From assembly GCA_031266655.1 (NCBI GenBank), contig JAISAP010000059.1, forward strand, positions 1 to 49,542: a DNA stretch of 49,542 nucleotides, written 5' to 3'. The DNA comes from Holosporales bacterium. GTDB lineage: Bacteria; Pseudomonadota; Alphaproteobacteria; UBA3830; JAIRMZ01. Positions 3,097 to 49,200 of the stretch are shown here, piece after piece. Made by a program: the position numbers and the translations under genes. The notes beneath the pieces are model-generated. The model was not told the origin of the DNA. It did not search any database and was given only the letters and a program-made list of their open reading frames with translations. Position 1 is the first letter of the stretch; each line of letters starts with the position of its first letter.

Positions 3097-3182
3097 TGGT
3101 GCCCGTGGAGGGACTCGAACCCCCACAACTTTTCAGTTCGCAGATTTTAAGTCTACTGCGTCTACCATTCCGCCACACGGGC
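3097..3182 (-). tRNA. tRNA-Leu (anticodon TAA)
   Basis: Minus strand GCCCGTGTGGCGGAATGGTAGACGC-AGTAGA-CTTAAAA-TCTGC, long variable arm, GGTTCGAGTCC T-arm, encoded CCA. Confidence 0.96.
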
Positions 3183-9794: not shown

Positions 9795-10780
9795 ACTTGA
9801 GGCGAGCGCACCTCGTGTGAGCAAGAATACAGCATGTTGTAGGATAGTGGGTGAGAAATGGATGCCCCTGAGGCGTAAAGATGGTGCGTTTGACGTTTGT
9901 GCCCCAAAAGCAAGCAAGCTGCACAAGCATGCTCAACACAGCGTGATCGCCTAAGGGCCTTTGGCACCAATCTGCGTGTGCCTTGGGAACATCCGGCATT
10001 TTTGCTCTGTCAGCGATGGTACAGTACGCTAACGTTGCCCTCAGGTTGTTTCGATGCATTCTTTTGCCATGCCCCGCATATCGTCTACCCTCCTCTCTGT
10101 CACAGCTTCGGCGACAAGACGGTCGTGTCTCTTCCCCATCGGTCACGCTGTCATCTTGCGTAAGCGTGATGGGCGAGCGCGCTCCCATTCTGGGTCCAGG
10201 AAGAAGCAGCACCCTTGTATCTCGTGGCCACTCTGTTCTTGTGATTTTGGTGTGGGAGCCGATACACTCCACTTCGAGAGCGCGAGCATGGGATTGGGTC
10301 GCTCCCTCTCGCCAAGCATGCCGGGCCAACGATACGGGATTGAACAGAGGCTCTGGACTAGCATCTCTTTTGCCTGTTGACCAGATGCTCCAATACACTG
10401 AGGGGAGGCGCACCTCTAGCGAATGCTTGTTGCTCTCTTCCGCCAACCAAACCCCGGAGTCTTTCCTGCGGCTCCACCCCCTCTCTTACCTCACACCCTC
10501 CTCAAAGACACCCAAATCCCTGGGATTCTCCTCAAAACTCTTCTGTACTATGAACGCTCAAAAATGCTCGTAGGTCAGGTGGCTCGTGTCTCACTTTACC
10601 GTGAACAATGTGCTCACAGACACATGCAAGAATGCCGTGCTTTTCATAAACCCCTAACCGACTGAATTTCAACATGTCGCACTCTTCCTAACATCATGTT
10701 GCTAGGAGAGAGCCATCAGTAATAGTTTCCCTATACTTCTGAGTCGCTGTATATCTTGGTACAGCCAAGAGAGAGGGTAG

Positions 10781-21543: not shown

Positions 21544-21635
21544 TGGCGGAGGGAAAGGGATTCGAACCCTTGATACAGCTTGCGCCGTATAACGGTTTAG
21601 CAAACCGTCGCCTTCAGCCTCTCGGCCACCCCTCC
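21544..21635 (-). tRNA. tRNA-Ser (anticodon GCT)
   Basis: Minus strand GGAGGGGTGGCCGAGAGGCTGAAGGC-GACGGT-TTGCTAA-ACCGT, long variable arm, GGTTCGAATCCC, ends CCGCCA. Confidence 0.96.
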
Positions 21636-23163: not shown

Positions 23164-24465
23164 CTAGTACATCCAGGATACGGACACCGAGAAGTTTGCT
23201 CCGTAGTCCTTTCTCAGGTTAGGAGAGTGGCGTTCGCCTAAGAGGCTCTTCTCGGAGTAGAGACCGACATCGGCTCCCAACGCTATTCTCTGAGAGACGG
23301 GTATTCTCACAGAAGCCTCTGCATCAAACCCGAGACCAAAGGTAAAAGCGCAGGCGTAAGACATGTTATGCCACGTCTCTCCCAGCGTCTGCCTGACGCC
23401 CACATTAAATTCCCTGGCAGAATGCCCGTAAACGATATATTCGGCGCCAAAAGTCAGATCGAGATGGTGGCAAATGTTGTACTCGCTGATGGTCCGAAAC
23501 GAGACTCCCTTGGTCGTGAGGTAAGAGCAGGTATCCGGAACCCTCAGTCCCCAAAGCGCAAAATGCCGGATAGGTTGCTCCTTCCCCAGGAAGATATTCC
23601 AGGAAGCGCACGCCATGTAGTAGGTGGTTCCACTCACAGCAACAGAGATCCATCCTGCGCGCTGGATATCAGAAAGCGTCGCGGGGATGCCCAGCGCTTG
23701 GTAAGAATAAACCACCGTATAGGGGTCGTCTCCGAGTGCTTTTGCCTTCGCAGCATACGCCGCTCCATACACCTTGTTGGAGAAATAAGACCAACACTCG
23801 AGAGAAGACATGCTTTCCTGAGCAAATGTCCGATCACTCACCAGCTCGGAAAGGTACACGTTGTTGTTGATTCCACCAGCGCCGGAAATAATCGCTTTTT
23901 TGTGATAGCTCTCGAAGTCTTTGCTCTTTTCCCCGTAGAGGTCAGCATTCCGATGTGTCTCGCTGCGTTCCTCGGACAAGTAGTGACATGCAGCCCTCCC
24001 CGGGCTCACAAGTTCCAGCAAGAAGAACTTGAAGAAATTCTCATTCTTTTTTGTGGGGCTTGTCGCCTTAATATCGTGCATAAGGGCATAGGCACCATCG
24101 CTGTATGTTGCACGCAGCCTGAGACCGTGTCCCGCTTCATGGAGCGCGGTTCCGTACTTGAAATCAATCCACATGCTCGATACCCGCCACACGGCAATGA
24201 TAATCCAAGGTGATGAGGCAAGAAGATTGTCAACATGAGCCCCTAAACGTATAACTTCCAGGCAAAATCCCGCTAGTTGTTTGTTGGTGTACATTTTCTC
24301 GAAATAAGCAGAGCTAAACGTCAGGCTATCTTTTGGCTTCTCTGTGGGAGGTGCAGGAGGACCAGTCTCTGCCTCGGAAGGAAGGACGGGACTTTCTGCA
24401 GGAGCACTTCCCCCAGCGCACAGAGAAAACAGGGAGGCGACGACCACCAGGAGAGCTTTCAGCAT
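23164..24465 (-). CDS. Exported/outer-membrane hypothetical protein, paralogue 3 (HEAGH motif)
   Basis: Same family as 17312 and 18576. Start set at MLKALLVVVASLFSL by homology to paralogue 1, with which it shares a ~40-bp upstream sequence (CCTTGACTCATC..GGAGACT). Confidence 0.82.
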   Translation of the reverse strand: MLKALLVVVASLFSLCAGGSAPAESPVLPSEAETGPPAPPTEKPKDSLTFSSAYFEKMYTNKQLAGFCLEVIRLGAHVDNLLASSPWIIIAVWRVSSMWIDFKYGTALHEAGHGLRLRATYSDGAYALMHDIKATSPTKKNENFFKFFLLELVSPGRAACHYLSEERSETHRNADLYGEKSKDFESYHKKAIISGAGGINNNVYLSELVSDRTFAQESMSSLECWSYFSNKVYGAAYAAKAKALGDDPYTVVYSYQALGIPATLSDIQRAGWISVAVSGTTYYMACASWNIFLGKEQPIRHFALWGLRVPDTCSYLTTKGVSFRTISEYNICHHLDLTFGAEYIVYGHSAREFNVGVRQTLGETWHNMSYACAFTFGLGFDAEASVRIPVSQRIALGADVGLYSEKSLLGERHSPNLRKDYGANFSVSVSWMY

Positions 24466-24590
24466 TTCCAAAGTCTCCGGGTTCAGGCGAGATGAGTCAA
24501 GGGGCTTTGCAGCTAAGAGACCTTTATTGACTGCGTGGATTGATGCCACCGCCCTTCCTGCGTTATGCTCGCGTGCTGAGTGAGTAACCG

Positions 24591-25755: not shown

Positions 25756-26697
25756 ATGAAAAAACAGGCAGCAACCACAAAACCGCTCGTGATTGTCGCA
25801 TACGACGCGGAGTGGCCTCGGTTTTTCCATGAGGAAGCCGAAAGAATCAAGGCTTTCATGGGAGAGACGGTTGCAGATCTTCATCATATCGGGTCTACGT
25901 CTGTTCCCGGCCTTTCTGCAAAACCGATCGTGGATATGCTCCTTGTCACGCGTGACCTTGAAGAGGCAAGGCAGCATCTGACCAGTAGTGAGCTGGGATA
26001 TCGGTACAAAGGCGAGTACAATTTGCCTCTGAGGGACTTGTACGGGAAAAGTGGACCGTGCGAGACTTATCTCCATGTTCACCAGGTTGGAAACCCCGAG
26101 ATAGCGTTGAATGTGCTGTTTAGGGATTTTTTGAGAGACCACCGTGATGCCCGCGAACACTATGAGCGTGCCAAGCTGGCCGCTAGCCAATCCAGCGGAG
26201 CCGGAGACAAGGTGGAAGCTGGGATAACACAGTATAACTTGAGGAAAAACGACAGTATTGTCTCTATCTTACGGAATACCGGTTTTGACAGTTTATGTGT
26301 GAGATTTGTGGCGCAGCATAGGGAACACGAGGCTTTTGAGCAGTTCAGGTCGGAGTTCTTCGAGCAAATAGGCGGAGGCGATCTGACAGAAGTTTCTGCG
26401 GAGAGCAAGAAATTTGTCTTGTATCAAGGAACGGAGATCATAGGATCTGCCGGATTGTCTGATGGAGGAGCTGGGAGAGCTTCTATAGATTTTGCGATCT
26501 CTGAGACGCCGGAAGGATTTCTAAGGCTGTTGCAAGTCATTGAGGCTTGGGTAATGCTGAGGATGCAGGCGGATAGTTTGTCCGCTGTCGCGTTGCAGGA
26601 GCAATCCGCACTCTACGTATCAGCCGGCTTTGTCGCCTTGCAGGGTGCTAGGGGTTCTGGGAAGGTGCCTGTATGGAAGAGAATCCTCAACGCTTGA
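25756..26697 (+). CDS. GrpB (UPF0157) family protein with C-terminal extension (possibly GNAT-like)
   Basis: YDAEWP..F..E, HIGSTSVPGLSAKPIVD, HVH, FRDFLR and YERAK; ATG 25756 follows AGGAAAGG. Confidence 0.85.
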   Translation: MKKQAATTKPLVIVAYDAEWPRFFHEEAERIKAFMGETVADLHHIGSTSVPGLSAKPIVDMLLVTRDLEEARQHLTSSELGYRYKGEYNLPLRDLYGKSGPCETYLHVHQVGNPEIALNVLFRDFLRDHRDAREHYERAKLAASQSSGAGDKVEAGITQYNLRKNDSIVSILRNTGFDSLCVRFVAQHREHEAFEQFRSEFFEQIGGGDLTEVSAESKKFVLYQGTEIIGSAGLSDGGAGRASIDFAISETPEGFLRLLQVIEAWVMLRMQADSLSAVALQEQSALYVSAGFVALQGARGSGKVPVWKRILNA

Positions 26698-26755
26698 CCT
26701 TTCTATCGGTTGATCTAGGGGGAGTCTTAATGTGCGCCTGCGCGAGCCTTTCCGC

Positions 26756-27710
26756 TTGATACAGGTGCACCCCTGGGGGTTCCAGCGTAAGACATGTGTA
26801 GATGTATCATCTGTTAGTGTAAGGGCATCTACTGACCCTATAATTTGCTGGAATGGAGCCGATACCGCTCTCTGTAGTTGCAGGTTGTACGTAAGGCGTA
26901 TGTAGGAGTATCCGTCTGGAAGCTTTTATACAAGGTGGTGTTGGTGTATGTGCTCCCTTAATACCAATGTATTCCTTGGAAGGTTATACGTAACGCTGGT
27001 GTAGGGACGTCATCAAGGCCCAGCGGCATTCAGCCGCGGCTGAAGGCGAACGAGGGTTCATAGGCTGTTGGAAAATGTTCTGCGTAGTTACTCTGAACTT
27101 GATACAGATCTCTACAGTTGAAGTTTGTACGTAACGCTGATTTAGGGTTATCGTCGCCTTTGTGACTTTATCAGACCAAAAAAAGGTGTCACAAAGGCCC
27201 CGCGTCCTCTTCTGTGGGATGCGGTTCTCCATACGCCTAATACAGGATATACCTTAAGAGTTTTTACGTAACGCTGGTGTAGAATAACCCGCTTCCACTT
27301 CGATACAAGTGTATTTTTCTAGAGTGCTAGCGTAACGTTGGTGTAGGATCATCTGCGTTGAAGTTTCGGGCACAAGATCTGTGTGGGTGTATCTACTACT
27401 TTGATACCAGTGTATTCCTGGAGGGTTCTAGCGTGACGCTGGTGTGAGTGCATCATTGCCCTTGCGACTGTAGGAATAAATAGAGTTCGCAAGGGCCCCA
27501 CAGCGGTTAGCTGCGGCTATTACGGACTTGGCACAAGAGTTTGCTTTGAAGTTTTTCCCGCAAGACTTATATCGGTGCATCCAGTATCTCAGTACAGAAC
27601 TCTGCAGTTGCAGGTTTTGCGTAACGTTGGTGTAGGAGTATCCACGCCCTCATGACCGCATGTAACAAGCAAGATTGGCATGAGGGCTCCTGCAGCATTG
27701 TGCCGTAGTT
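26756..27710 (+). repeat. Structured non-coding repeat array A (core motif + double hairpin)
   Basis: About 9 copies of RRYAC-N23/24-CGYRA-N6-TGTAG-like cores (starts ~26758, 26861, 26960, 27101, 27239, 27302, 27403, 27530, 27591) and 3 hairpin modules (27156-27198, 27458-27496, 27646-27687). Confidence 0.85.
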
Positions 27711-27887
27711 AAAGTGATAGAAAGGGGCAGTTTTCCCCTTGCCCTGCGTTGTTGAATCCTTCCGCAAGCTCTTTTGACTCCCCCCTTTGTCTTGCTGAGT
27801 CCCGCTACGATCTATGAAGGTACCTCTCCATTGTCTCTACACACTCGAAAGTTTCTCTCTGCAGCTCCTCTCTTTTGATATCGGCCA

Positions 27888-28083
27888 GTTCGGTGCGGCA
27901 TGCATTCTCTCTTTTCTGCGCCGTTCACAGCCCTTTTCTTTCTCCTTGCGACTTATTTTCTCCCAATATACACAGTATTTTTATTATTTCACCTCATTTG
28001 ACAATTTTATTTATTCTTTTTTAACCTATTGCGCATAATTTATTATCCAATACGATAGATTCGTGCAAAAAGGAAGAGAGAAG
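27888..28083 (+). promoter_or_regulatory. Conserved AT-rich upstream region of flgE-like copy 1
   Basis: Near-identical inverted copy at ~32877-33074. Contains TTGACA (27998; CTGACA in copy 2), TTAACC, CATAAT and a purine-rich RBS-like GGAAGAGAGAAG. Confidence 0.65.
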
Positions 28084-29938
28084 ATGTCTTTGTTTAATAC
28101 CATGGGAGTATCTGTAGCAGGATTCCGCGCACAAGCGAAGAGGATGGCTACGATAGCGGATAATGTCAGCAACAGTGACACGATGGGCTATAAGACGCGT
28201 TCAGTTGCCTTCACTCCCCAAATAAATGGCCGGGGGGGGGGGCAGCTCCTTAAATAAAGGAACTTCCAATAATTATCTTCCATTTATTGGCAATAATAAT
28301 TCTTCTTCCAATTCTAGCTACTCCAGCTCTGGCGTTTCTGCACATATGCTAATGCATCTCCAAGAGCAAGGAGAGCTACAGCGCACCGACCGTCCTCTAG
28401 ATCTTGCCGTAGACGGAGAGGGCTTACTCCTCGTTAAAGACAAAAGCGGAGCCCTCGGAGGTGCCAGGACAGGAACCTTCCATGTTACTAAAGAAGGGCT
28501 TATTCAAGACGCACAAGGCCTCACCCTCCAAGGCTGGCCTTTACTGCCAGAAGGAACCGCAGGATCTAGTTCTGCAAAAGCTGCTGCGACCCAGGCTGTC
28601 CAATCTGCTCCGCCCCCTTCCTCTGCTACTGCTGTAGGCTCTCTGGGAGACCTTGAAGACGTCCATCTCCTCCTTCCACCAGGAGAGGTCTCCGCCTCTA
28701 CCGCGAAGGCATCGCACCCTCATGAGTCCCGCTTTAGGGAAACAGGATTAACAATCCAAAAGCAAGATGATGGTCTGTACTCTCTCTGTAACTCCGAGAT
28801 CCAGGTGAACGGCTTTTACGAAAGTACTTATGCCCAGCACACCTTTGTGGACTCTCTCGGGAGTGAACGCGTAGTAGATATAAAAGTGCAGAAGCTTCCG
28901 CATCCATCTCCCTCCACGTCCTTTTTTCTTCAATCTTCCGGTCTTGATGCAGAACTTGTATTACGTGCCGATGGGGTCTTGCAATGCGAAGCGGGGTGCA
29001 CTTTTGACAATACCACCAAGCAGGTGACTGTTACCTTCCCTGATACCGGGGCAGAGTTAACGCTCGACATAAGCAACGTCCAAATGCCCATGGGGAGCTG
29101 TTCCCCTCCCACCTCTGAAGGTGTCTTCTCTTGGGACTTTCCCCCCATGATTCTTGAAAAGGGTACCTATCTTGTAGAACATATGCTCATTCTCGACCAT
29201 CATGACGTGTGGGGTATTTCCGGTATGGCTTTGCTGGTAAAAAAGAACGAGGATGGCTCCTTTGGGGGGACCCTCTATGAAGGGGACGTCCGTATAGATC
29301 TCCACTTCGATGACCATGGTTGGGTATCGAGTTATAAGTTCACGCATAACGGCAACAATGAAAGTGTAGGGATCGAACAGACCGGAGAGATCATAAAGGG
29401 GGTGAACTTCGGCAACGGCGCTACCACAATCGACATCGATTTGAGTGCCTTTCGGCTGATCAATAGGACGGGCTCCAATCTCGTCGTCAATGGAAACACC
29501 ATAAAGCCAGTCGACTCCTCTGGAGAGGATGAAACTGCCGGTGCCGTTTCTGGAGATGCTCTCTCAGGGAGCTCCCTCACTGCGGTTCCACCTCCACCTT
29601 CTTCTCTTTCTATCGACGAGAACGGCGTATTAAGTCGTCTTAAGGATAACGGAGACTGGGAGCCACTCTACCTCCTGACCTGCTGTCAGTTTGCAGCGAT
29701 GAACGCTGCAGAAGAACGTAATGGCGTCTACTACGCGACTCCCGCCTCAGGGGTTCTCCGAACTGGAGTCTCGGGGCAAGAAGGCATGGGGACGATCACT
29801 GCGGGCACTCTAGAACGCTCCACCACAGACCTCGCCCATGAACTCTCCGAAATGATCAAAGCCCAACACGCCTACGCTGCTAATACCAAAGTCCTCTCTA
29901 CCATCGACGATATGCTCACAGAGCTCGAGAGATTGTAG
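28084..29938 (+). pseudogene. flgE: Flagellar hook FlgE-like protein, copy 1, out of frame at G11 (phase-variable candidate)
   Basis: N-terminus MSLFNTMGVSVAGF...IADNVSNSDTMGYK; DLAVDGEG, RTGTF and LQGWP; C-terminus LERSTTDLAHELSEMIKAQHAYAANTKV. G11 at 28232-28242 leads to a stop at 28257; G10 or G13 restores the frame. Confidence 0.85.
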
Positions 29939-29957
29939 AGGAGAGGGGGGAGAACTC

Positions 29958-30870
29958 AGCAGCGCCACCTGTTGTGGAGCAACTGATACAGACTTAGTAG
30001 GAGCGTTTACGCTGAAGTTTTTCTTACAAGACGTACATCGGTGTGTTTGCTACCTTAATACAAGTGTGTTCCTCGAGAGTTCTAGCGTAACGTTGGTGTA
30101 GAGTTATCGTTAGCCTTTGTGCCCTTACTAAACTGGATTAATGTCACAAAGGCCCCGCGCCCTTTGTGGGGCGCGGTTATCTCATGAGCTCAGCACAAGC
30201 GTTTATGTTGAAGTTTTTCTTGCAAGATCTGTGCAGGCACGTCCGCCACCTTCATACAAGTGTCCTGCTAGGGACTCTAGCTTAATGTTGGTGTAGGGTC
30301 ACCGTCGCCCTTGCGTCCACTCAAGGTGGACAGGGTTCGCAAGGGCCGCTGCGGCATCATGGCGCGGCTACCATGGACTTAATACGGGTGTACCCCTCTG
30401 AAGTTTGAGTGCAAGGCCTACATCTATGTTCTTGCGCCAACTGAAAGTGAATACGATCCGCAAAGGCTCCGCGTCCCCTTCTATGGGGCGCGGTTATTAC
30501 GGATTCAGTATAGATGTTTATGCTGCGGCTTTGATCGTAGAACGTATATCGGAACGTCTACCACCTCCATACAAGTGCACTGCTAGGGATTCTAGCGTAA
30601 CGCTGGTGTAAAAGGAGCATTGCCCTCATGACCTTATTTTGTAGCAAAAGATGGCATGAGGGCCCTGCGCCCTTATAGGGCGCGGTCGAAAGTGAATGGA
30701 GCTCTACATACTTCTGACAAGTGCTCGGTGCAGCCACGTGGACCTCCATACAAGAGTACTTCTTCAGAGTTCTAGCGTAACGTTGGTGTAGGATTATCAT
30801 CGCCTTTGTGCCATGATCAATTCAAACAAAGCGCACAAAGACTCCGCGCCATCTATTATGGCGCGGTTCA
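29958..30870 (+). repeat. Structured non-coding repeat array B between the convergent flgE-like 3' ends
   Basis: Two core variants largely alternate (CGTAACGYTGGTGTA at 30086, 30596, 30776; TGAAGTTT..CAAG type at ~29996, 30192, 30381). Five double-hairpin modules at 30113, 30307, 30431, 30622 and 30802; full units are ~180-195 bp. Confidence 0.87.
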
Positions 30871-31053
30871 AGGGGTAGGAAGGGCCGTTCTTCTCTTTGT
30901 CCTGCGTTTCTGGACCTCTCCGCAAACTCTCCTAGTGCTCTCTTTGTCTTGCATTGCTGGACCTCTCCGCAAGCTCCCCTAACTCTTCCCTTTACCCCTT
31001 AACTCTCTTCCGTCACTTCTTTGCAACCCCCGCTCTCTACTTCCATCCACCCT

Positions 31054-32876
31054 CTACAATCTCTCGAGCTCTGTGAGCATATCGTCGAGGGTAGAGAGGA
31101 CTTTGGTATTAGCAGCGTAGGCGTGTTGGGCGCGGATCATGTCGGAGAGCTCATGGGCGAGGTTCGTGGTGGAGCGCTCCAGGGTGCCCGCAGTAATCGT
31201 TCCCATGCCGTCTTTTCCGGAGATTCCGGTTCGGAGGGCTCCTGAGGCGGGAGTCGCGTAGTAGACGCCATTGCGCTCCTCTGCAGAATTCATCGCGGCA
31301 AACTGACCGCAAGCGAGGAGATAAATGGGCTCCCAATCTCCGTTATCTTTAAGACGCTTCAATACGCCGTTCTCGTCAATGGAGAGAGAGGAAGGAGAAA
31401 CCATGGCGGAGGAAGCCTCCGATAGGGAGGCTCCAGAAGCAGTACGAGCGCTCCCAGCGTTTCCTGGGGAAACCTCTGGCTTGATGGTGGCTCCGTTAAC
31501 TACGAGAGCCGAATCTGTTCGGTTGACGATACGAAAAGCGCTGAAATCGATATGGATAGTGTCGTAGTCGGTGTCACTTTTGACAAAGTGTATCCCTTCC
31601 ACGACGGATCCAGTCTGTTCCGTCCCTACGCTTGGATCGTCGGTACTACCCCCGTTCTTCGTGAATTGATAGCCCGAAACCCAGCCGTCTGCATCAAAAT
31701 AAAGCTCCACGTCAAAGCCGTAGCTTTCATTATACAACTTCCCCGTGAAAGAACCGCCCTCATTCCTTTTTACCATCCATCGGATCTCGGGGGAGGATTC
31801 TAGGACTTGGGAGATTTTACAGGTCCCCTCCTCGAAGATCATGGGGAAAAAGTTCCAAGACAGGGTACCCCCAGAGGGAGGAAGAGAGTAGTGGGTTCCA
31901 CCGCTTGGGAGGTGGCTTATGTCGAGCGTTAGCTGCGCTTCAGTATCGGGGAAGGTCACCGTCATCTGCTTGGTGGCGTTATCAAAAGTGCAAAAGCTTA
32001 AATCGGCGCGGCTCTCGTCCGCCCAATATTCGCACACCGCGGTTTGGTGGAGGTCGGCAGATTTCAGGGTAGTGCGCGTACCATCAGAACACTGCCACAC
32101 ATCTATTTCGACGGTATGCTTGTTCCCGAGGGAGTCCACAAGGTTCTTCTGCAGGGTAAACGATTCGTAGAAGCCATCCGTGTGGGTTGTGGAGCTGTGA
32201 AAGGAGTACAGGCCGTCAACTTCCTTTTGTATGGTGGGGCCGGTTCCATAGGGGATGGACGCTTTCGCACTGGTTACTTCTGGCTTGATAAGTTGGATAT
32301 CCTCAAGGTCTCCCAAAGAGCCTGCAAAGGCAGCGGAAGGAGGTGGAGCAACCTTGGCTGTCTGAGCTGCAGCTGCTTCCGGCAGCAAGGGCCAGCCTTG
32401 GAGAGTAAGACCTTGTGCGTTTTGGATCAGCCCTTCTTTCGTAACTTGGAAAGTGCCTGTTCTCGCTCCTCCGAGGGTGCCGCTTTTGTCTCTAACCAGG
32501 AGTAAGCCCTCTCCGTCTACGGCAAGGTCTAAAGGCCGATCGGTGCGTTGTAGCTCTCCCTGTGCTTGGAGATGCATTAAAGTGTGCGCAGAGACCCCGG
32601 AGCTGGAGTAGAGAGATCTGGCACTGGAGGGGGAACCGGAACTCCCTATCAAAGAATTGGAAGAATTATTGTTGCCAATAGAGAGAAAGAAATCTCCTTT
32701 ACTTAAGGAACTTCCCCCCCCCCCCCCCGGCAATTTATTTGGGGAGTAAAGGCAAGTGATCGCACCTTATAGCCCATCGTGTCACTGTTGCTCACATTGT
32801 CCGCTATCGTAGCCATCCTCTTCGCCTGCGCGCGGAATCCAGCGACAGATACTCTCATGGTATTAAACAAGGACAT
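31054..32876 (-). pseudogene. flgE: Flagellar hook FlgE-like protein, copy 2, out of frame at G15 (phase-variable candidate)
   Basis: ATG at 32876 gives MSLFNTMRVSVAGFRAQAKRMATIADNVSNSDTMGYK...INCRGGGGEVP-stop. The C15 run is at 32714-32728; 13 or 16 would join the 559-aa downstream ORF that carries the FlgE C-terminal motif. Confidence 0.85.
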
Positions 32877-33074
32877 CTTCTCTCTTCCTGCATGTACGAA
32901 TCTATCGTATTGGATAATAAATTATGCGCAATAGGTTAAAAAAGAATAAATAAAATTGTCAGATGAGGTGAAATAATAAAAATACTGTGTATGTTAGGAG
33001 AAAATAAGGGCAGAAAGAAAAAAGAAAAGAGCTGTGAACGGCGCGGAAAAGAGAGAACGCATGCTGCATCGAAC
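32877..33074 (-). promoter_or_regulatory. Conserved AT-rich upstream region of flgE-like copy 2
   Basis: Inverted near-identical copy of 27888-28083. Confidence 0.65.
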
Positions 33075-33094
33075 CAGAAGGTGCCAAATGATGC

Positions 33095-33505
33095 CTCTAC
33101 ACCAGCGTTGCACAAAAAAACTTTGCAGTAGATTCCCGTCCTAGGTCTATAATGGCCGCGGCCCAATACCGCGGTGGCCCTATGCCATCCTTTCTGTTAT
33201 AGGTAGTCATGAGGGCGTGGACGCAATTACATAGGCCTTACGTATCACTTGCAACTGCAGATACCTGTATCGAGGCTGATAACCGCGCCACAATAAGTGG
33301 CGCAGGGCCTTTGTGACATAAATCCATTGCAAATATGGTCACAAAGGCGATGATGCCACTACAGACATCTTACGTACAACCTGCAACTACAGATATCTGT
33401 ATCGAGGTTGATAGTAACCGCGGTATGATGCCGCGGGGCCCTTGCGAAGTCTATTGACTACAGAACGCAAGGGCAATGGTCCCCCTACATCAGCGTTATG
33501 AAAAG
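33095..33505 (-). repeat. Structured non-coding repeat array C (inverted relative to A and B)
   Basis: Reverse-complement cores at ~33097-33142, 33226-33271, 33359-33403 and 33485-33499. Hairpins at 33177-33216, 33307-33348 and 33438-33474, each paired with a CCGCG-type hairpin; ~130-bp period. Confidence 0.85.
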
Positions 33506-33546
33506 AGCCCATGAATTCACCAAAACTCATGCAGTATGCTCGTCCC

Positions 33547-34029
33547 CTAAAAGCGGCGATCTTTTTCGCCTTTCAGGACTCCCCAGGTTTGCGAGCGGTG
33601 GAGCCATCCCGTGAGGCGCTCGACCTTCACGCGCAGCCAATCACCGCGGATCTCTTGAAGTTGCGCAGAAGTGCCCGGTTCAAGATAGGCTACAACCTGC
33701 GCATCTGCACTGGGTTTGTCCAGCAGAGAGTGTGTTTTCTCTATGACGAGAGCGCTTCTGCGCATAGTAAGCATGTTTTGGTGAATCCACCCCTCCTCGC
33801 CCTCCGCATCCTGGATTTTGCGCCAAATGCCGACTTCTGCGAGGACAATGAGGGGAATTCCAGAGCGCACGAATTTCCAAGACAAAGGGTACTGTCTTCC
33901 TGGTCCGACACGAACATTGGCCTCCTGCGCCCTCAGCGTGACTGCATACGGAAGAACCGGCGTGGTTTGTGCATACGTAACGGCGTCCCCTAACGCTAGC
34001 AGAAAGGCTATCCGTATCCTCAGACGCAT
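33547..34029 (-). CDS. Bacterial SH3 domain protein (two SH3-like repeats)
   Basis: Signal peptide; ANVRVGPG..YP, WRKIQDAEGEEGWIHQNML and GWLHRSQTWG. The ATG overlaps the dut stop. Confidence 0.88.
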   Translation of the reverse strand: MRLRIRIAFLLALGDAVTYAQTTPVLPYAVTLRAQEANVRVGPGRQYPLSWKFVRSGIPLIVLAEVGIWRKIQDAEGEEGWIHQNMLTMRRSALVIEKTHSLLDKPSADAQVVAYLEPGTSAQLQEIRGDWLRVKVERLTGWLHRSQTWGVLKGEKDRRF

Positions 34030-34466
34030 CAAGTTCCCGTCGATCCGAAGCCACCTGCTCCGCGTTGGGTTTCTGGAAGGACTGTGACACACTCAAAGGT
34101 CACAGACTCGTAACACGCAATCACCATCTGTGCGATGCGCATCTCGGGCTCGATCGTAAAAGGCTCAGATCCGAGGTTGATGAGGGCAACTTTGACCTCT
34201 CCTCTATAGTCGCTGTCAATGGTCCCAGGAGCGTTCAAGACAACGACTCCATGCTTCACCGACAACCCAGAGCGCGAGCGAACTTGCGCCTCGTATCCCG
34301 CGGGAATAGCAAGCGCGATGCCGCACCCAACCAGCACGCGTTCCTGAGGGCGCAGCACGATGGGCGCTTTAAGGGAGGCGTGGAGATCCATGCCTGCACT
34401 CCCGCTGGTTGCGTAAGTGGGAAGCGTGGCTTCTGGCGTTTGGAGAAGAATTTTTACGGTGAGCAT
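34029..34466 (-). CDS. dut: dUTP diphosphatase
   Basis: [30 protein letters not shown] and [10 protein letters not shown]. Confidence 0.97.
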
Positions 34467-48889: not shown

Positions 48890-49200
48890 TGTTGAGATTC
48901 GACCAGGTTAGGGGCGTGCGAGAAGTATAGAATGCTCGCATGTTTCTGTGAGGACATGTCGGCACGTTCAGTGAGGTAGTGGATCAAGATCCGTCAGAAC
49001 ACGATCAACCTGACCTACAAGCACTTTCGAGAGTTGAGAGTCCAGCAGAGCTTTGAGGAGAGTGCGGGGCAAGAGTCCTATCAACGACATTGAGGCTTTC
49101 TGGAGCTTTGCGAACGGACGTTTGACGAAGTTCAACGGCTTAAGAGGCGATGTCTTCCTTTTGCCCTTGAAAGAGTGTGAGCTTCAGCATACCTGCAGAC
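48890..49200 (+). mobile_element. IS1595-family transposase remnant (internally deleted)
   Basis: RRVRGK directly joined to INDIEAFWSFANGRLTKFNGL...FLLPLKECE; an upstream fragment reads ...CFCEDMSA. No complete ORF. Confidence 0.75.

Follow-up and report, generated by a model that had tools for sequence, protein, structure and literature searches.

Convergent arrays of a two-part hairpin repeat around switchable flagellar-hook-like genes in a termite-gut bacterium of the Holosporales

Introduction

Interspersed repeats such as REP, BOX, NIME and others are common in bacterial genomes, but their functions are mostly unresolved. Neisserial intergenic mosaic elements (NIMEs) are non-coding arrays in which RS units are flanked by 20-bp dRS3 inverted repeats (ATTCCCN8GGGAAT); they flank surface-protein genes, vary in unit number, take in IS elements, and are proposed to promote exchange of the flanked gene (PMC1797815). 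REP elements are abundant intergenic imperfect palindromes with a GTAG-type head directly at the foot of a single palindrome, present as inverted doublets or alternating BIMEs, and in the so-called REPtrons the RAYT gene, encoding a Y1 HUH transposase, is bracketed by inverted REPs. BOX elements of Streptococcus pneumoniae are modular composites of short, reshuffled modules with stable secondary structure in intergenic regions (PMC3049150). Cassettes bounded by recombination sites are found in integrons, whose co-oriented attC sites are conserved in structure rather than sequence, and in the dif modules of Acinetobacter plasmids, which are bracketed by inverted sites and use the host XerC/XerD. 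Finally, opposed groups of polar sites around a centre are known from the Ter sites of replication fork traps, and Chi is another polar DNA signal.

Here we describe a repeat family found in a 49,542-nucleotide stretch of DNA, referred to below as the window, which comprises positions 1 to 49,542 of contig JAISAP010000059.1 of a Holosporales bacterium (assembly GCA_031266655.1). A first-pass annotation, made from the sequence alone, had pointed to three unrecognised arrays, A, B and C, bracketing two flgE-like genes, with about 20 copies of a ~45-nt core, many of them followed by a double hairpin. It suggested an array processed into small structured RNAs, ssDNA recombination or nicking sites serving flgE variation, or a new palindromic repeat family.

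Organization of the arrays in the window

The observation of the first-pass annotation holds. The motif CGTAACGYTGGTGTA occurs exactly at positions 26989, 27267, 27331, 27620, 30086, 30596 and 30776; with up to 3 mismatches it occurs 12 times in the window, against 0.86 expected, and 0 of 100 shuffles reach 12. Profile searches (nhmmer) revealed 15 core (C) and 11 double-hairpin (H) modules in the window, and a covariance model of the unit, R1, gave 15 window hits at E<=1e-5, so that the earlier estimate of about 20 copies is roughly right when degenerate cores are counted. The proposed units of ~130 and ~190 nt are also confirmed: of 140 core-to-core spacings under 700 nt in the whole genome, 32 fall in 120–139 nt and 52 in 180–199 nt, corresponding to C+H and C+C'+H, respectively.

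Array A (26759–27722, plus strand; R1 hits span the same interval) contains eight core and three double-hairpin modules head to tail in the order CCCCHCCCHCH and points right, at flgE-like gene 1. It is followed by a terminal T module (27729–27788, plus strand), a member of a direct repeat family designated D5, which is pyrimidine-rich on the array strand and purine-rich in gene sense when it lies 3' of a gene; T modules follow the last hairpin of an array, and the same module follows the innermost unit at many other loci. Between it and the gene lies a conserved AT-rich upstream region (27871–28083, plus strand), the presumed promoter and 5' leader, which shares two inverted repeats, I2 (93%) and I5 (81%), with the upstream region of gene 2 (32877–33091, minus strand). 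In flgE-like gene 1 (28084–29938, plus strand) the N-terminal 57 codons are followed by a G11 tract at 28232–28242, and the main frame of 570 aa is shifted by +1, i.e., OFF in the consensus. Array B (29958–30868, plus strand) starts 20 nt after the stop of gene 1 with one degenerate core followed by CHCHHCHCH; it lies between the two 3' ends and points at the 3' end of gene 2, from whose stop codon it is separated by two overlapping T modules (30887–30993, plus strand). The flgE-like gene 2 (31054–32876, minus strand) is 60% identical to gene 1, carries a C15 tract (G15 in gene sense) at 32714–32728 and is out of frame in the consensus. Array C (33088–33528, minus strand), which reads CHCHCH in the profile search and comprises three C-H units plus an innermost core, points left at gene 2 and begins right after the stop of an SH3-domain gene (33547–34092, minus strand; Pfam SH3_4). 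As the annotation had stated, A and C lie upstream of, and are co-oriented with, their genes.

Pfam domains Flg_bb_rod, LlgE_F_G_D1 and Flg_bbr_C were found on the two genes and on the N-terminal ORF, and TIGR03506 scores 125 bits against a cut-off of 70, while the FlgE equivalog models remain below cut-off; the genes thus have the N-terminus, D1 domain and C-terminus of the FlgE/FlgF/FlgG hook-rod family. The non-coding nature of the arrays is supported, since the longest stop-free stretches inside A, B and C are 89, 87 and 46 aa and unit lengths are not multiples of 3.

Genome-wide distribution and polarity

The arrays are not peculiar to this locus. The 1.29-Mb genome, assembled to 92.7% completeness, contains 314 core and 294 hairpin modules, altogether 34,985 nt or 2.7% of the assembly, grouped in 106 arrays of 1–21 modules. 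The flgE-like genes form a family of 41 loci, of which 26 are at least 1.6 kb long, and most copies carry a G11–G16 tract at nt 148. Of the 82 sides of these 41 loci, 44 have an inward-pointing array within 700 nt and 5 an outward-pointing one, 13 have none and 20 are cut by a contig end; thus, 44 of the 49 scorable flanks carry an inward array. As the loci are paralogous, binomial figures derived from such counts overstate independence. Of the 106 arrays, 44 point at a flgE-like gene within 700 nt, 45 at a contig end, 13 at something else, two at another array of the same strand and two at one of the opposite strand. Among the arrays within 700 nt of contig ends 52 point outward and 4 inward, which implies unassembled cargo between contigs. 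The polarity is not tied to transcription: outer genes read into the array in 26 cases and away from it in 28, with no gene call in 31, and the inward arrays sit at 17 5' sides and 27 3' sides of the flgE-like genes. The first-pass annotation had named as grounds for abandoning its reading an element scattered genome-wide with no link to flgE, and this is only half fulfilled, since the element is genome-wide but linked.

Among 58 genomes of the order two carry the element, the present one and G003, which belongs to another genus of the same family. G003 has 46 hits with the same contig-end polarity, and its units are 73–86% identical to those of the present genome, while flanking genes are only 69–70% identical. 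All five internal G003 sites examined are convergent pairs, but the arrays examined bracket short, empty centres and no flgE-like gene, so the link to flgE is shown for one genome only. No hit was found in G001 (same genus, 63% complete), G002 (97% complete) and G004 (59% complete). In a synteny comparison the GrpB-like gene was not found in G001–G004, and FolD was found in all four, but none of the 11 other window genes tested lies within the 8–12 kb around it. A metagenome scan with the 16-mer gave at least 120 stretches, each with a single match, and none of the 80 loci retrieved from them matches R1, which is no evidence on distribution. In the one public run containing the locus, labelled termite gut metagenome, short contigs show joints between arrays, including strand changes; their anchors are 22–42 nt long and could come from other copies, and no rearrangement is therefore demonstrated. 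One of these contigs has two fewer C at 32714, which cannot be told from a paralog.

Structure and age of the units

The double hairpin is real. Six H modules of the window folded as DNA gave z-scores from -1.6 to -6.3, and RNAalifold on 10 window units predicted 19 pairs, 7 of them with compensatory changes. A MAFFT/RNAalifold alignment of 213 ungapped units gave no structure because the loops misaligned, and a model-based alignment was used instead. On 63 units 89.4% of cells pair, with 116 double-sided changes against 45.7 in shuffles and 0 of 500 shuffles as high, while slid registers pair only 35–46%; both hairpins covary. This alignment was, however, fitted to the model, and the stem variants fall into a few inherited classes, so that the cells count copies rather than independent events. 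H modules fold at -26.8 kcal/mol against -16.7 for shuffles, whereas C modules fold at -9.7 against -9.9, i.e., the core has no fold signal. The excess of G:U over A-C/C-A on the array strand is small, 61 against 45, which leaves the folded strand undetermined and RNA not excluded.

The units are old yet constrained. Nearest-neighbour units have a median identity of 77% and a maximum of 93.5%, and only 1 of 173 such pairs lies in the same array; among nearest-neighbour pairs of at least 80% identity the differences amount to 10.0% at core, stem and anchor positions against 26.1% elsewhere. Inter-array alignments have a median identity of 75%, and 1 of 179 long alignments reaches 90%.

Searches for known elements and associated enzymes

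Only two tRNAs in the window reached the Rfam gathering score, and there was no Rfam match even at E<=1 in 26700–33600; blastn gave no hit in plasmids or phages. A six-frame search of the assembly with PF01797, the Y1/HUH transposase profile, gave no match at E<=0.01, while the control gave matches in 6 of 14 genomes. No reverse transcriptase was found, nor was Cas1 in this genome or in G003. The only tyrosine recombinases are two that score best as XerD or XerC, with integron-integrase models reaching 102–120 bits against a cut-off of 265. The genome has RecA and an AddAB-like pair of PD-(D/E)XK helicase-nucleases on contig C19. In 26500–33800 terminator-like sites number 9 against 7.2 +/- 3.0 in shuffles and sigma-70 promoter-like sites 6 against 5.9, none recurring per unit; only one of the nine terminator-like sites is the hairpin 2 of a unit, and that one is on the opposite strand. 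The genome has the flagellar export gate (FlhA) but no detectable flagellin, which, together with the FlgE-like repertoire, suggests a variable hook-like surface filament. Full-text literature searches for a multi-copy phase-variable FlgE family or for such a termite symbiont found nothing relevant, and it is on these searches alone, supplements excluded, that the absence of a published description rests.

Interpretation

The interpretation offered by the first-pass annotation is partly supported. Its proposal of a new palindromic repeat family is supported and its suspected link to flgE is confirmed and much extended; ssDNA recombination or nicking sites remain possible as a DNA-level role, though with no enzyme behind them, and processed small RNAs are not supported, though not excluded. 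The abundance, the linkage and polarity, the paired structure, and the age and constraint of the units were observed directly, and we hold with high confidence that the arrays belong to a new, structured, selected, non-coding repeat family linked to the flgE-like cassettes; in the reading adopted here the family is restricted to this lineage, and what the arrays do, including any protein binding, hairpin extrusion or recombination, is inferred. A unit has two parts: a ~55-nt sequence module (ATACAGG, ~20 variable nt, CGTAACGYTGGTGTAG, then ATC), which looks like a protein-recognition site, and, usually, a ~70-nt module of two adjacent hairpins with an 11-bp and a 7–8-bp stem, of which the pairing and not the sequence is conserved. 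Units are strung head to tail into polar arrays laid out as convergent pairs around a central cargo, in this genome almost always a member of the large family of poly-G phase-variable FlgE-like genes.

In the reading we favour, though only tentatively, the units act on DNA and not as parts of neighbouring mRNAs. A sequence-specific protein would bind the core, the hairpins would extrude in single-stranded or supercoiled DNA, and the arrays would serve as polar boundary or recombination elements delimiting cassette slots, channelling breakage, repair or exchange at the variable cassette and making events between the two arms invert rather than delete the gene. The recombination machinery exists, but no binding protein, recombinase or recombination product has been identified, and the arrays, only ~75% identical to each other, are outside the 16-nt core and the stems poor substrates for homologous recombination. 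A further step, unlikely but of considerable interest if true, is that the convergent arrays are a new kind of chromosomal cassette slot, Chi-like or fork-pausing polar signals, protein-bound at the core with hairpins extruded, which steer the processing of breaks or stalled forks arising at the fragile poly-G contingency genes; the gene between the arms would then be repaired, inverted or swapped as a unit while the flanking housekeeping genes are protected. This would be a dedicated cis-acting system managing a ~40-member phase-variable hook-protein repertoire in a flagellin-less reduced genome.

The strongest alternative, which we nevertheless consider unlikely, is a selfish non-autonomous mobile repeat, REP/RAYT-like or MITE-like, inserting next to its own copies and accumulating in the dispensable, IS-rich DNA around the cassettes, its core and hairpins being what its transposase needs rather than a host function. 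The hundreds of copies, the patchy distribution in two different genera, the GTAG-ending head upstream of a hairpin, and the presence of an IS1595-like remnant within 600 nt of 29 of the 106 arrays, against 12.7 +/- 3.0 for random placement, fit this view. However, no Y1/RAYT transposase was found in the 92.7%-complete assembly, the unit ends (ATACAGG and GGTTA) are not inverted copies, no target duplication was seen on inspection of the simple G003 pairs, and the IS1595-like remnants are separate elements. There are also no young copies, and after such long inactivity neutral decay should have eroded core and stems as much as spacers, yet they differ 2.6-fold less; nor is the strict convergent geometry explained.

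Less likely still is that the arrays are transcribed and act as, or are processed into, structured RNAs, be it small RNAs, 3'-end stabilisers or attenuators of transcription entering the cassette. The compensatory changes in both hairpins, the slight G:U excess and the T-containing TTAnTA tail following hairpin 2 in the array direction speak for it, while the independence of polarity from outer genes, its being sense at the 5' sides and antisense at the 3' sides of the flgE-like genes, the promoter- and terminator-like sites at shuffle level, the lack of an Rfam family and the unfolded core speak against it. It is similarly doubtful that the arrays are passive hitch-hikers copied with an ancestral flgE-like cassette that happened to have inverted flanking repeats. 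Association and polarity would then be inherited automatically, and the 3' junctions do fall into two recurrent classes, of 17–40 nt or of 106–143 nt with a T module, but identity among paralogs falls from 88% in the last 150 coding nt to 41% immediately after the stop, core and stems are under position-specific constraint, convergent arrays exist without flgE-like cargo in G003, and units of one array are not each other's closest relatives (1 of 173 pairs). A decayed repeat-protein gene, a CRISPR array or another known element, suggested by the regular spacing and partly palindromic repeats, is contradicted by the short stop-free stretches and the unit lengths, by inter-core sequence that is itself a repeated module and not unique spacers, by units that are ~75% identical rather than identical, and by the absence of Cas1, of Rfam hits and of dRS3-type sites.

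Comparison with known systems

The family offers an unusually clean case among bacterial interspersed repeats, as a sequence motif is joined to hairpins conserved in structure, the placement follows a geometric rule that does not follow transcription, and the cargo is a single, very large family of phase-variable genes, which makes the question of whether repeat arrays organise contingency loci directly testable. With REP elements it shares abundance, the GTAG-type head and, in REPtrons, the geometry of a gene between inverted hairpin repeats; here, however, the GTAG ends the core ~10 nt before hairpin 1 and not at the foot of the stem, there are two hairpins per unit, the arrays are head to tail on one strand rather than alternating or in doublets, no RAYT was found, and the cargo is a structural gene. 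BOX elements share the modular, structured, intergenic character; their modules and sequence are different, and they are not known to have polar convergent placement or a link to one gene family. With integrons and dif modules the common feature is a cassette bounded by recombination sites, and XerC/XerD-like enzymes are the only tyrosine recombinases found here, but no 11-6-11 dif-like site was recognised in the core, the arrays are convergent and not co-oriented like attC sites, and they consist of many units rather than single sites. The resemblance to Ter and Chi is one of geometry alone. The array orientation is the one in which an end-processing helicase-nuclease starting from a break inside the cassette would meet the core from its 3' side, and the core contains a 7-of-8 match to the E. 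coli Chi octamer, but sub-words of the core are not enriched outside the arrays (41 observed against 50 expected for the Chi-like 8-mer) and the genome has AddAB-like, not RecBCD, enzymes.

The nearest analogue is the NIME arrays of Neisseria. Both are non-coding arrays of ~50–150-nt units lying next to genes for variable surface structures, unit number varies between arrays, and IS-type elements insert into them; the mechanism inferred here would be functionally like that of NIMEs. The sequence is unrelated and no dRS3 site occurs in the whole genome; the units described here have one conserved 16-nt core plus two covarying hairpins, the arrays are strictly head to tail and convergent around the cargo, a polarity not described for NIMEs in that paper (PMC1797815), and the cargo is one paralogous family.

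Motif, repeat unit and hook-like genes

The motif CGTAACGYTGGTGTA occurs exactly at the positions assigned to it by the first-pass annotation. With up to 3 mismatches it is present 12 times in the window, against 0.86 occurrences expected, and none of 100 shuffled sequences reached 12. Analysis of direct and inverted repeats recovers the three arrays and shows, additionally, that the two flgE-like genes, located at 28084-29938 (+) and 31054-32876 (-), are inverted copies of each other, including a block of 291 nt at 93% identity which spans the upstream region and the first codons. Both genes carry the hallmarks of FlgE/F/G proteins: Pfam identifies Flg_bb_rod in the short N-terminal ORF, and LlgE_F_G_D1 and Flg_bbr_C in the long ORF, while TIGR03506 scores 125 bits against a cut-off of 70. 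Both are split by a homopolymer, G11 at 28232-28242 and C15 at 32714-32728, respectively.

Stacking of about 210 genomic copies yields a unit composed of two parts. The core module C, of about 55 nt, consists of ATACAGG, about 20 variable nt, CGTAACGYTGGTGTAG, 4-5 nt, and then ATC. The hairpin module H, of about 70 nt, contains hairpin 1 with an 11-bp stem and a ~20-nt loop, and hairpin 2 with a GC-rich stem of 7-8 bp and a loop of 4-9 nt, followed by TTA. The combination C+H gives the ~130-nt period, whereas C plus a degenerate C plus H gives the ~190-nt period; of 140 core-to-core spacings under 700 nt, 32 fall in the range of 120-139 nt and 52 in that of 180-199 nt. The window holds 15 C and 11 H modules. 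A third, shorter module, T, of ~50-60 nt, follows the innermost hairpin of many arrays, and in the window it lies at 27729-27788, 30887-30946, and 30934-30993. Read in gene sense, it forms a purine-rich 3' tail after the stop codon of about two thirds of the flgE-like paralogs.

Structural conservation of the hairpin module

RNAalifold applied to 10 units from the window predicts both hairpins, with 19 pairs, 7 of them showing compensatory changes. A covariance model, R1, of 136 positions and 19 pairs was built and used to align 63 units from the window, other contigs, and a second genome. In this alignment 89.4% of the cells form pairs, and 116 cells have changes on both sides, against 45.7 +/- 5.8 in shuffles, with 0 of 500 shuffles reaching the observed value; sliding the partner by 1-3 columns reduces pairing to 35-46%. 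Hairpin 1 occurs in at least three mutually compensated stem versions. It should be kept in mind, however, that the alignment was fitted to the model and that the stem versions are inherited classes, so that the cells are not independent events. Six H modules from the window folded as DNA give z-scores from -1.6 to -6.3. Genome-wide, H modules fold at -26.8 kcal/mol against -16.7 for shuffles, while C modules show no signal, at -9.7 against -9.9. G:U pairs on the array strand number 61, against 45 A-C/C-A, a difference that does not decide which strand is folded, nor whether it is DNA or RNA.

Genome-wide distribution and linkage to the flgE-like family

The window is contig C57 of an 80-contig assembly of 1.29 Mb, which is 92.7% complete. 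In this assembly the motif with at most 1 mismatch occurs 139 times, whereas the reversed control occurs 0 times; with at most 2 mismatches there are 230 hits on 53 of the 80 contigs. Profile HMMs find 314 C and 294 H modules, constituting 34,985 nt, or 2.7% of the assembly, and grouped in 106 single-strand arrays of 1-21 modules. The element is therefore not special to this locus.

A tblastn search with the two window proteins finds 46 loci. Five of these are the ordinary hook or rod genes, or weak unrelated matches (one each on contigs C1, C22, and C49, and two on C2), while the other 41 belong to a family with 80-90% identical termini and a 45-60% identical centre. Of the 41, 26 are at least 1.6 kb long, and most of the rest are cut by contig ends. 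Among the 82 sides of these 41 loci, 20 are cut by a contig end, 13 have no array within 700 nt, 44 have an array pointing at the gene (17 at 5' sides and 27 at 3' sides), and 5 have an array pointing away. Three of the five exceptions are convergent gene pairs sharing one middle array: the window, contig C23, and an analogous case on contig C6 visible in the module census. Seen from the arrays, 44 of 106 point at a flgE-like gene within 700 nt, 45 at a contig end, 13 at something else, 2 at another array of the same strand, and 2 at one of the opposite strand. Arrays within 700 nt of a contig end point outward 52 times and inward 4 times, indicating that the assembly breaks between convergent arrays, presumably in further multi-copy cargo. 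The binomial figures (about 1e-8 and 1e-11) overstate independence, since the loci are paralogs.

Of 23 N-termini found in this family, 18 have a G11-G16 tract at nt 148, 3 are cut by a contig end before that point, and 2 have no tract. Of the 17 copies with at least 1.8 kb readable, 16 are interrupted soon after the tract in the assembled consensus, although homopolymer lengths in such assemblies are unreliable. The remaining one, at 15158-16984 of contig C68, is the only long paralog without a G tract; it has an uninterrupted frame of 609 aa from its ATG and may be a constitutively ON copy. The pattern is that of slipped-strand phase variation, which is an inference. The genome has FlhA, but no flagellin N-terminal domain was found in it, and the family may thus represent a phase-variable hook-like surface filament. 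Outside this genome, the flgE-like family with its central domain was found only in 9 proteins on short JGI metagenome contigs, at 43-58% identity (including P0012, P0015, P0018, P0020, P0021, P0025, P0027, and P0028, all on contigs of 1.1-2.7 kb); all further hits match only the termini.

Polarity of the arrays in relation to transcription

The gene just outside an array reads into it in 26 cases and away from it in 28, while in 31 cases no gene of at least 200 aa lies within 800 nt. Relative to the cargo gene, arrays are sense on the 5' side and antisense on the 3' side. Within 26500-33800, terminator-like sites (9 against 7.2 in shuffles) and sigma-70-like sites (6 against 5.9) are at background, and none recurs per unit. 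The only thing the polarity follows is the centre of the pair, which is the main reason for favouring a DNA-level role over a role in neighbouring mRNAs.

Age of the copies and constraint

The arrays are diverged: inter-array alignments of at least 120 nt have a median identity of 75%, and only 1 of 179 alignments of at least 250 nt reaches 90%. For 211 near-full units, the nearest relative of a unit is 77% identical at the median and 93.5% at most, and it lies in the same array in only 1 of 173 pairs, so there has been no recent burst and no homogenisation by unequal crossing-over. Among nearest-neighbour pairs of at least 80% identity, differences amount to 10.0% at the ATACAGG, core, ATC, stem, and TTA positions, against 26.1% elsewhere (chi-square p about 1e-42). 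Identity among the flgE-like paralogs is 88% in the last 150 coding nt and drops to 41% right after the stop codon; the arrays are therefore not simply dragged along by homogenisation of the genes.

Occurrence in related genomes

Model R1 finds the element in 2 of 58 genomes of the order: the genome studied here (G000) and G003, which represents another genus of the same family. G003 has 46 hits, again on the minus strand at contig starts and on the plus strand at contig ends. Its units are 73-86% identical to those of G000, flanking genes are 69-70% identical at the nucleotide level, FolD is 57% identical at the protein level, and the G003 core is a slight variant. All five internal G003 sites retrieved, L077 2199-2700, L078 1997-2883, L080 2256-2529, L207 565-857, and L208 136-579, are small convergent pairs with gene-free centres of 20-310 nt, holding no flgE-like gene and no IS remnant; the centres of L077 and L078 share a conserved stretch of ~30 nt. 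These may be empty or emptied slots. The two ordinary flgE-type genes of G003 (440 and 456 aa) have no arrays. Convergent pairing is thus a property of the repeat system itself, while the flgE-like cargo is shown only for G000. Three further genomes, G001 (63% complete), G002 (97%), and G004 (59%), have no hit, and an flgE-like gene of G001 has no array at its 3' end.

Genomic context and searches for known elements

Rfam yields only two tRNA genes in the window at gathering score, at 3100-3182 (-) and 21547-21635 (-), and nothing in the array region at E<=1. No blastn match was found in plasmids or phages, and no Y1/RAYT transposase, reverse transcriptase, or Cas1 was detected. The only two tyrosine recombinases are XerD- and XerC-like, with integron-integrase models far below cut-off. 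There are no dRS3 sites, and stop-free stretches inside the arrays are at most 89 aa. A 461-aa ORF at 23164-24549 (-) of the window belongs to no Pfam or NCBIfam family.

The genome has RecA and, at 3131-10304 of contig C19 and next to recA, an adjacent AddAB-like pair of 1129 and 880 aa, both with PD-(D/E)XK nuclease domains; no RecC was found. It also carries 72 loci, about 35 kb in total, of decayed IS1595/ISXO2-like transposase genes (Pfam DDE_Tnp_IS1595, E 1.3e-7), two of them in the window, at 10435-10678 and 48902-49183. These remnants lie within 600 nt of 29 of the 106 arrays, against 12.7 +/- 3.0 for random placement, and a second repeated segment (the query C31x) usually lies beside them. 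The only public run holding the locus is labelled termite gut metagenome.

Interpretation and comparison with known systems

The observation of repeat arrays bracketing the two flgE-like genes is confirmed and extended. The interpretation offered in the first-pass annotation is supported in part: a new palindromic repeat family and its link to flgE are supported, an array of small RNAs is not supported, and nicking or recombination sites remain an open possibility. The analysis itself demonstrates a modular non-coding unit with a conserved sequence site and two structure-conserved hairpins, polar arrays, convergent pairs around a cargo, independence from transcription, old copies under constraint, and presence in two genera. 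What is inferred, on the other hand, is that a protein binds the core and that the hairpins form in single-stranded or supercoiled DNA, the arrays then acting as boundary or recombination elements for the cassette between them; the inverted layout means that events between the two arms would invert rather than delete the gene. Against this reading, no enzyme or recombination product was found, and the arrays, at ~75% identity, are too diverged for efficient homologous recombination outside the core and stems.

Among the alternatives, a selfish element finds its best argument in the patchy distribution among the related genomes. It is inferred, however, that core and stems are kept by selection acting on the copies where they sit, since a neutral relic or a long-dead selfish element would have lost them. 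A role in neighbouring mRNAs is less favoured because of the polarity, even though the folding data do not distinguish DNA from RNA.

A bolder version of the DNA-level reading takes the polarity as Chi-like or fork-pausing. The orientation is the one in which an end-processing enzyme leaving a break in the cassette would meet the core from its 3' side, and the core, e.g., at 26989-27004, holds a 7-of-8 match to the E. coli Chi octamer, as well as a small dyad, CGT-A-ACG. However, core words are not enriched outside the arrays, so this version has no independent support. The closest published idea to the reading as boundary or recombination elements is that NIME arrays promote exchange of the surface-protein genes they flank (PMC1797815). 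Structured intergenic repeat arrays beside variable surface genes are already known, and what sets the present family apart is its unusual, strict convergent geometry.
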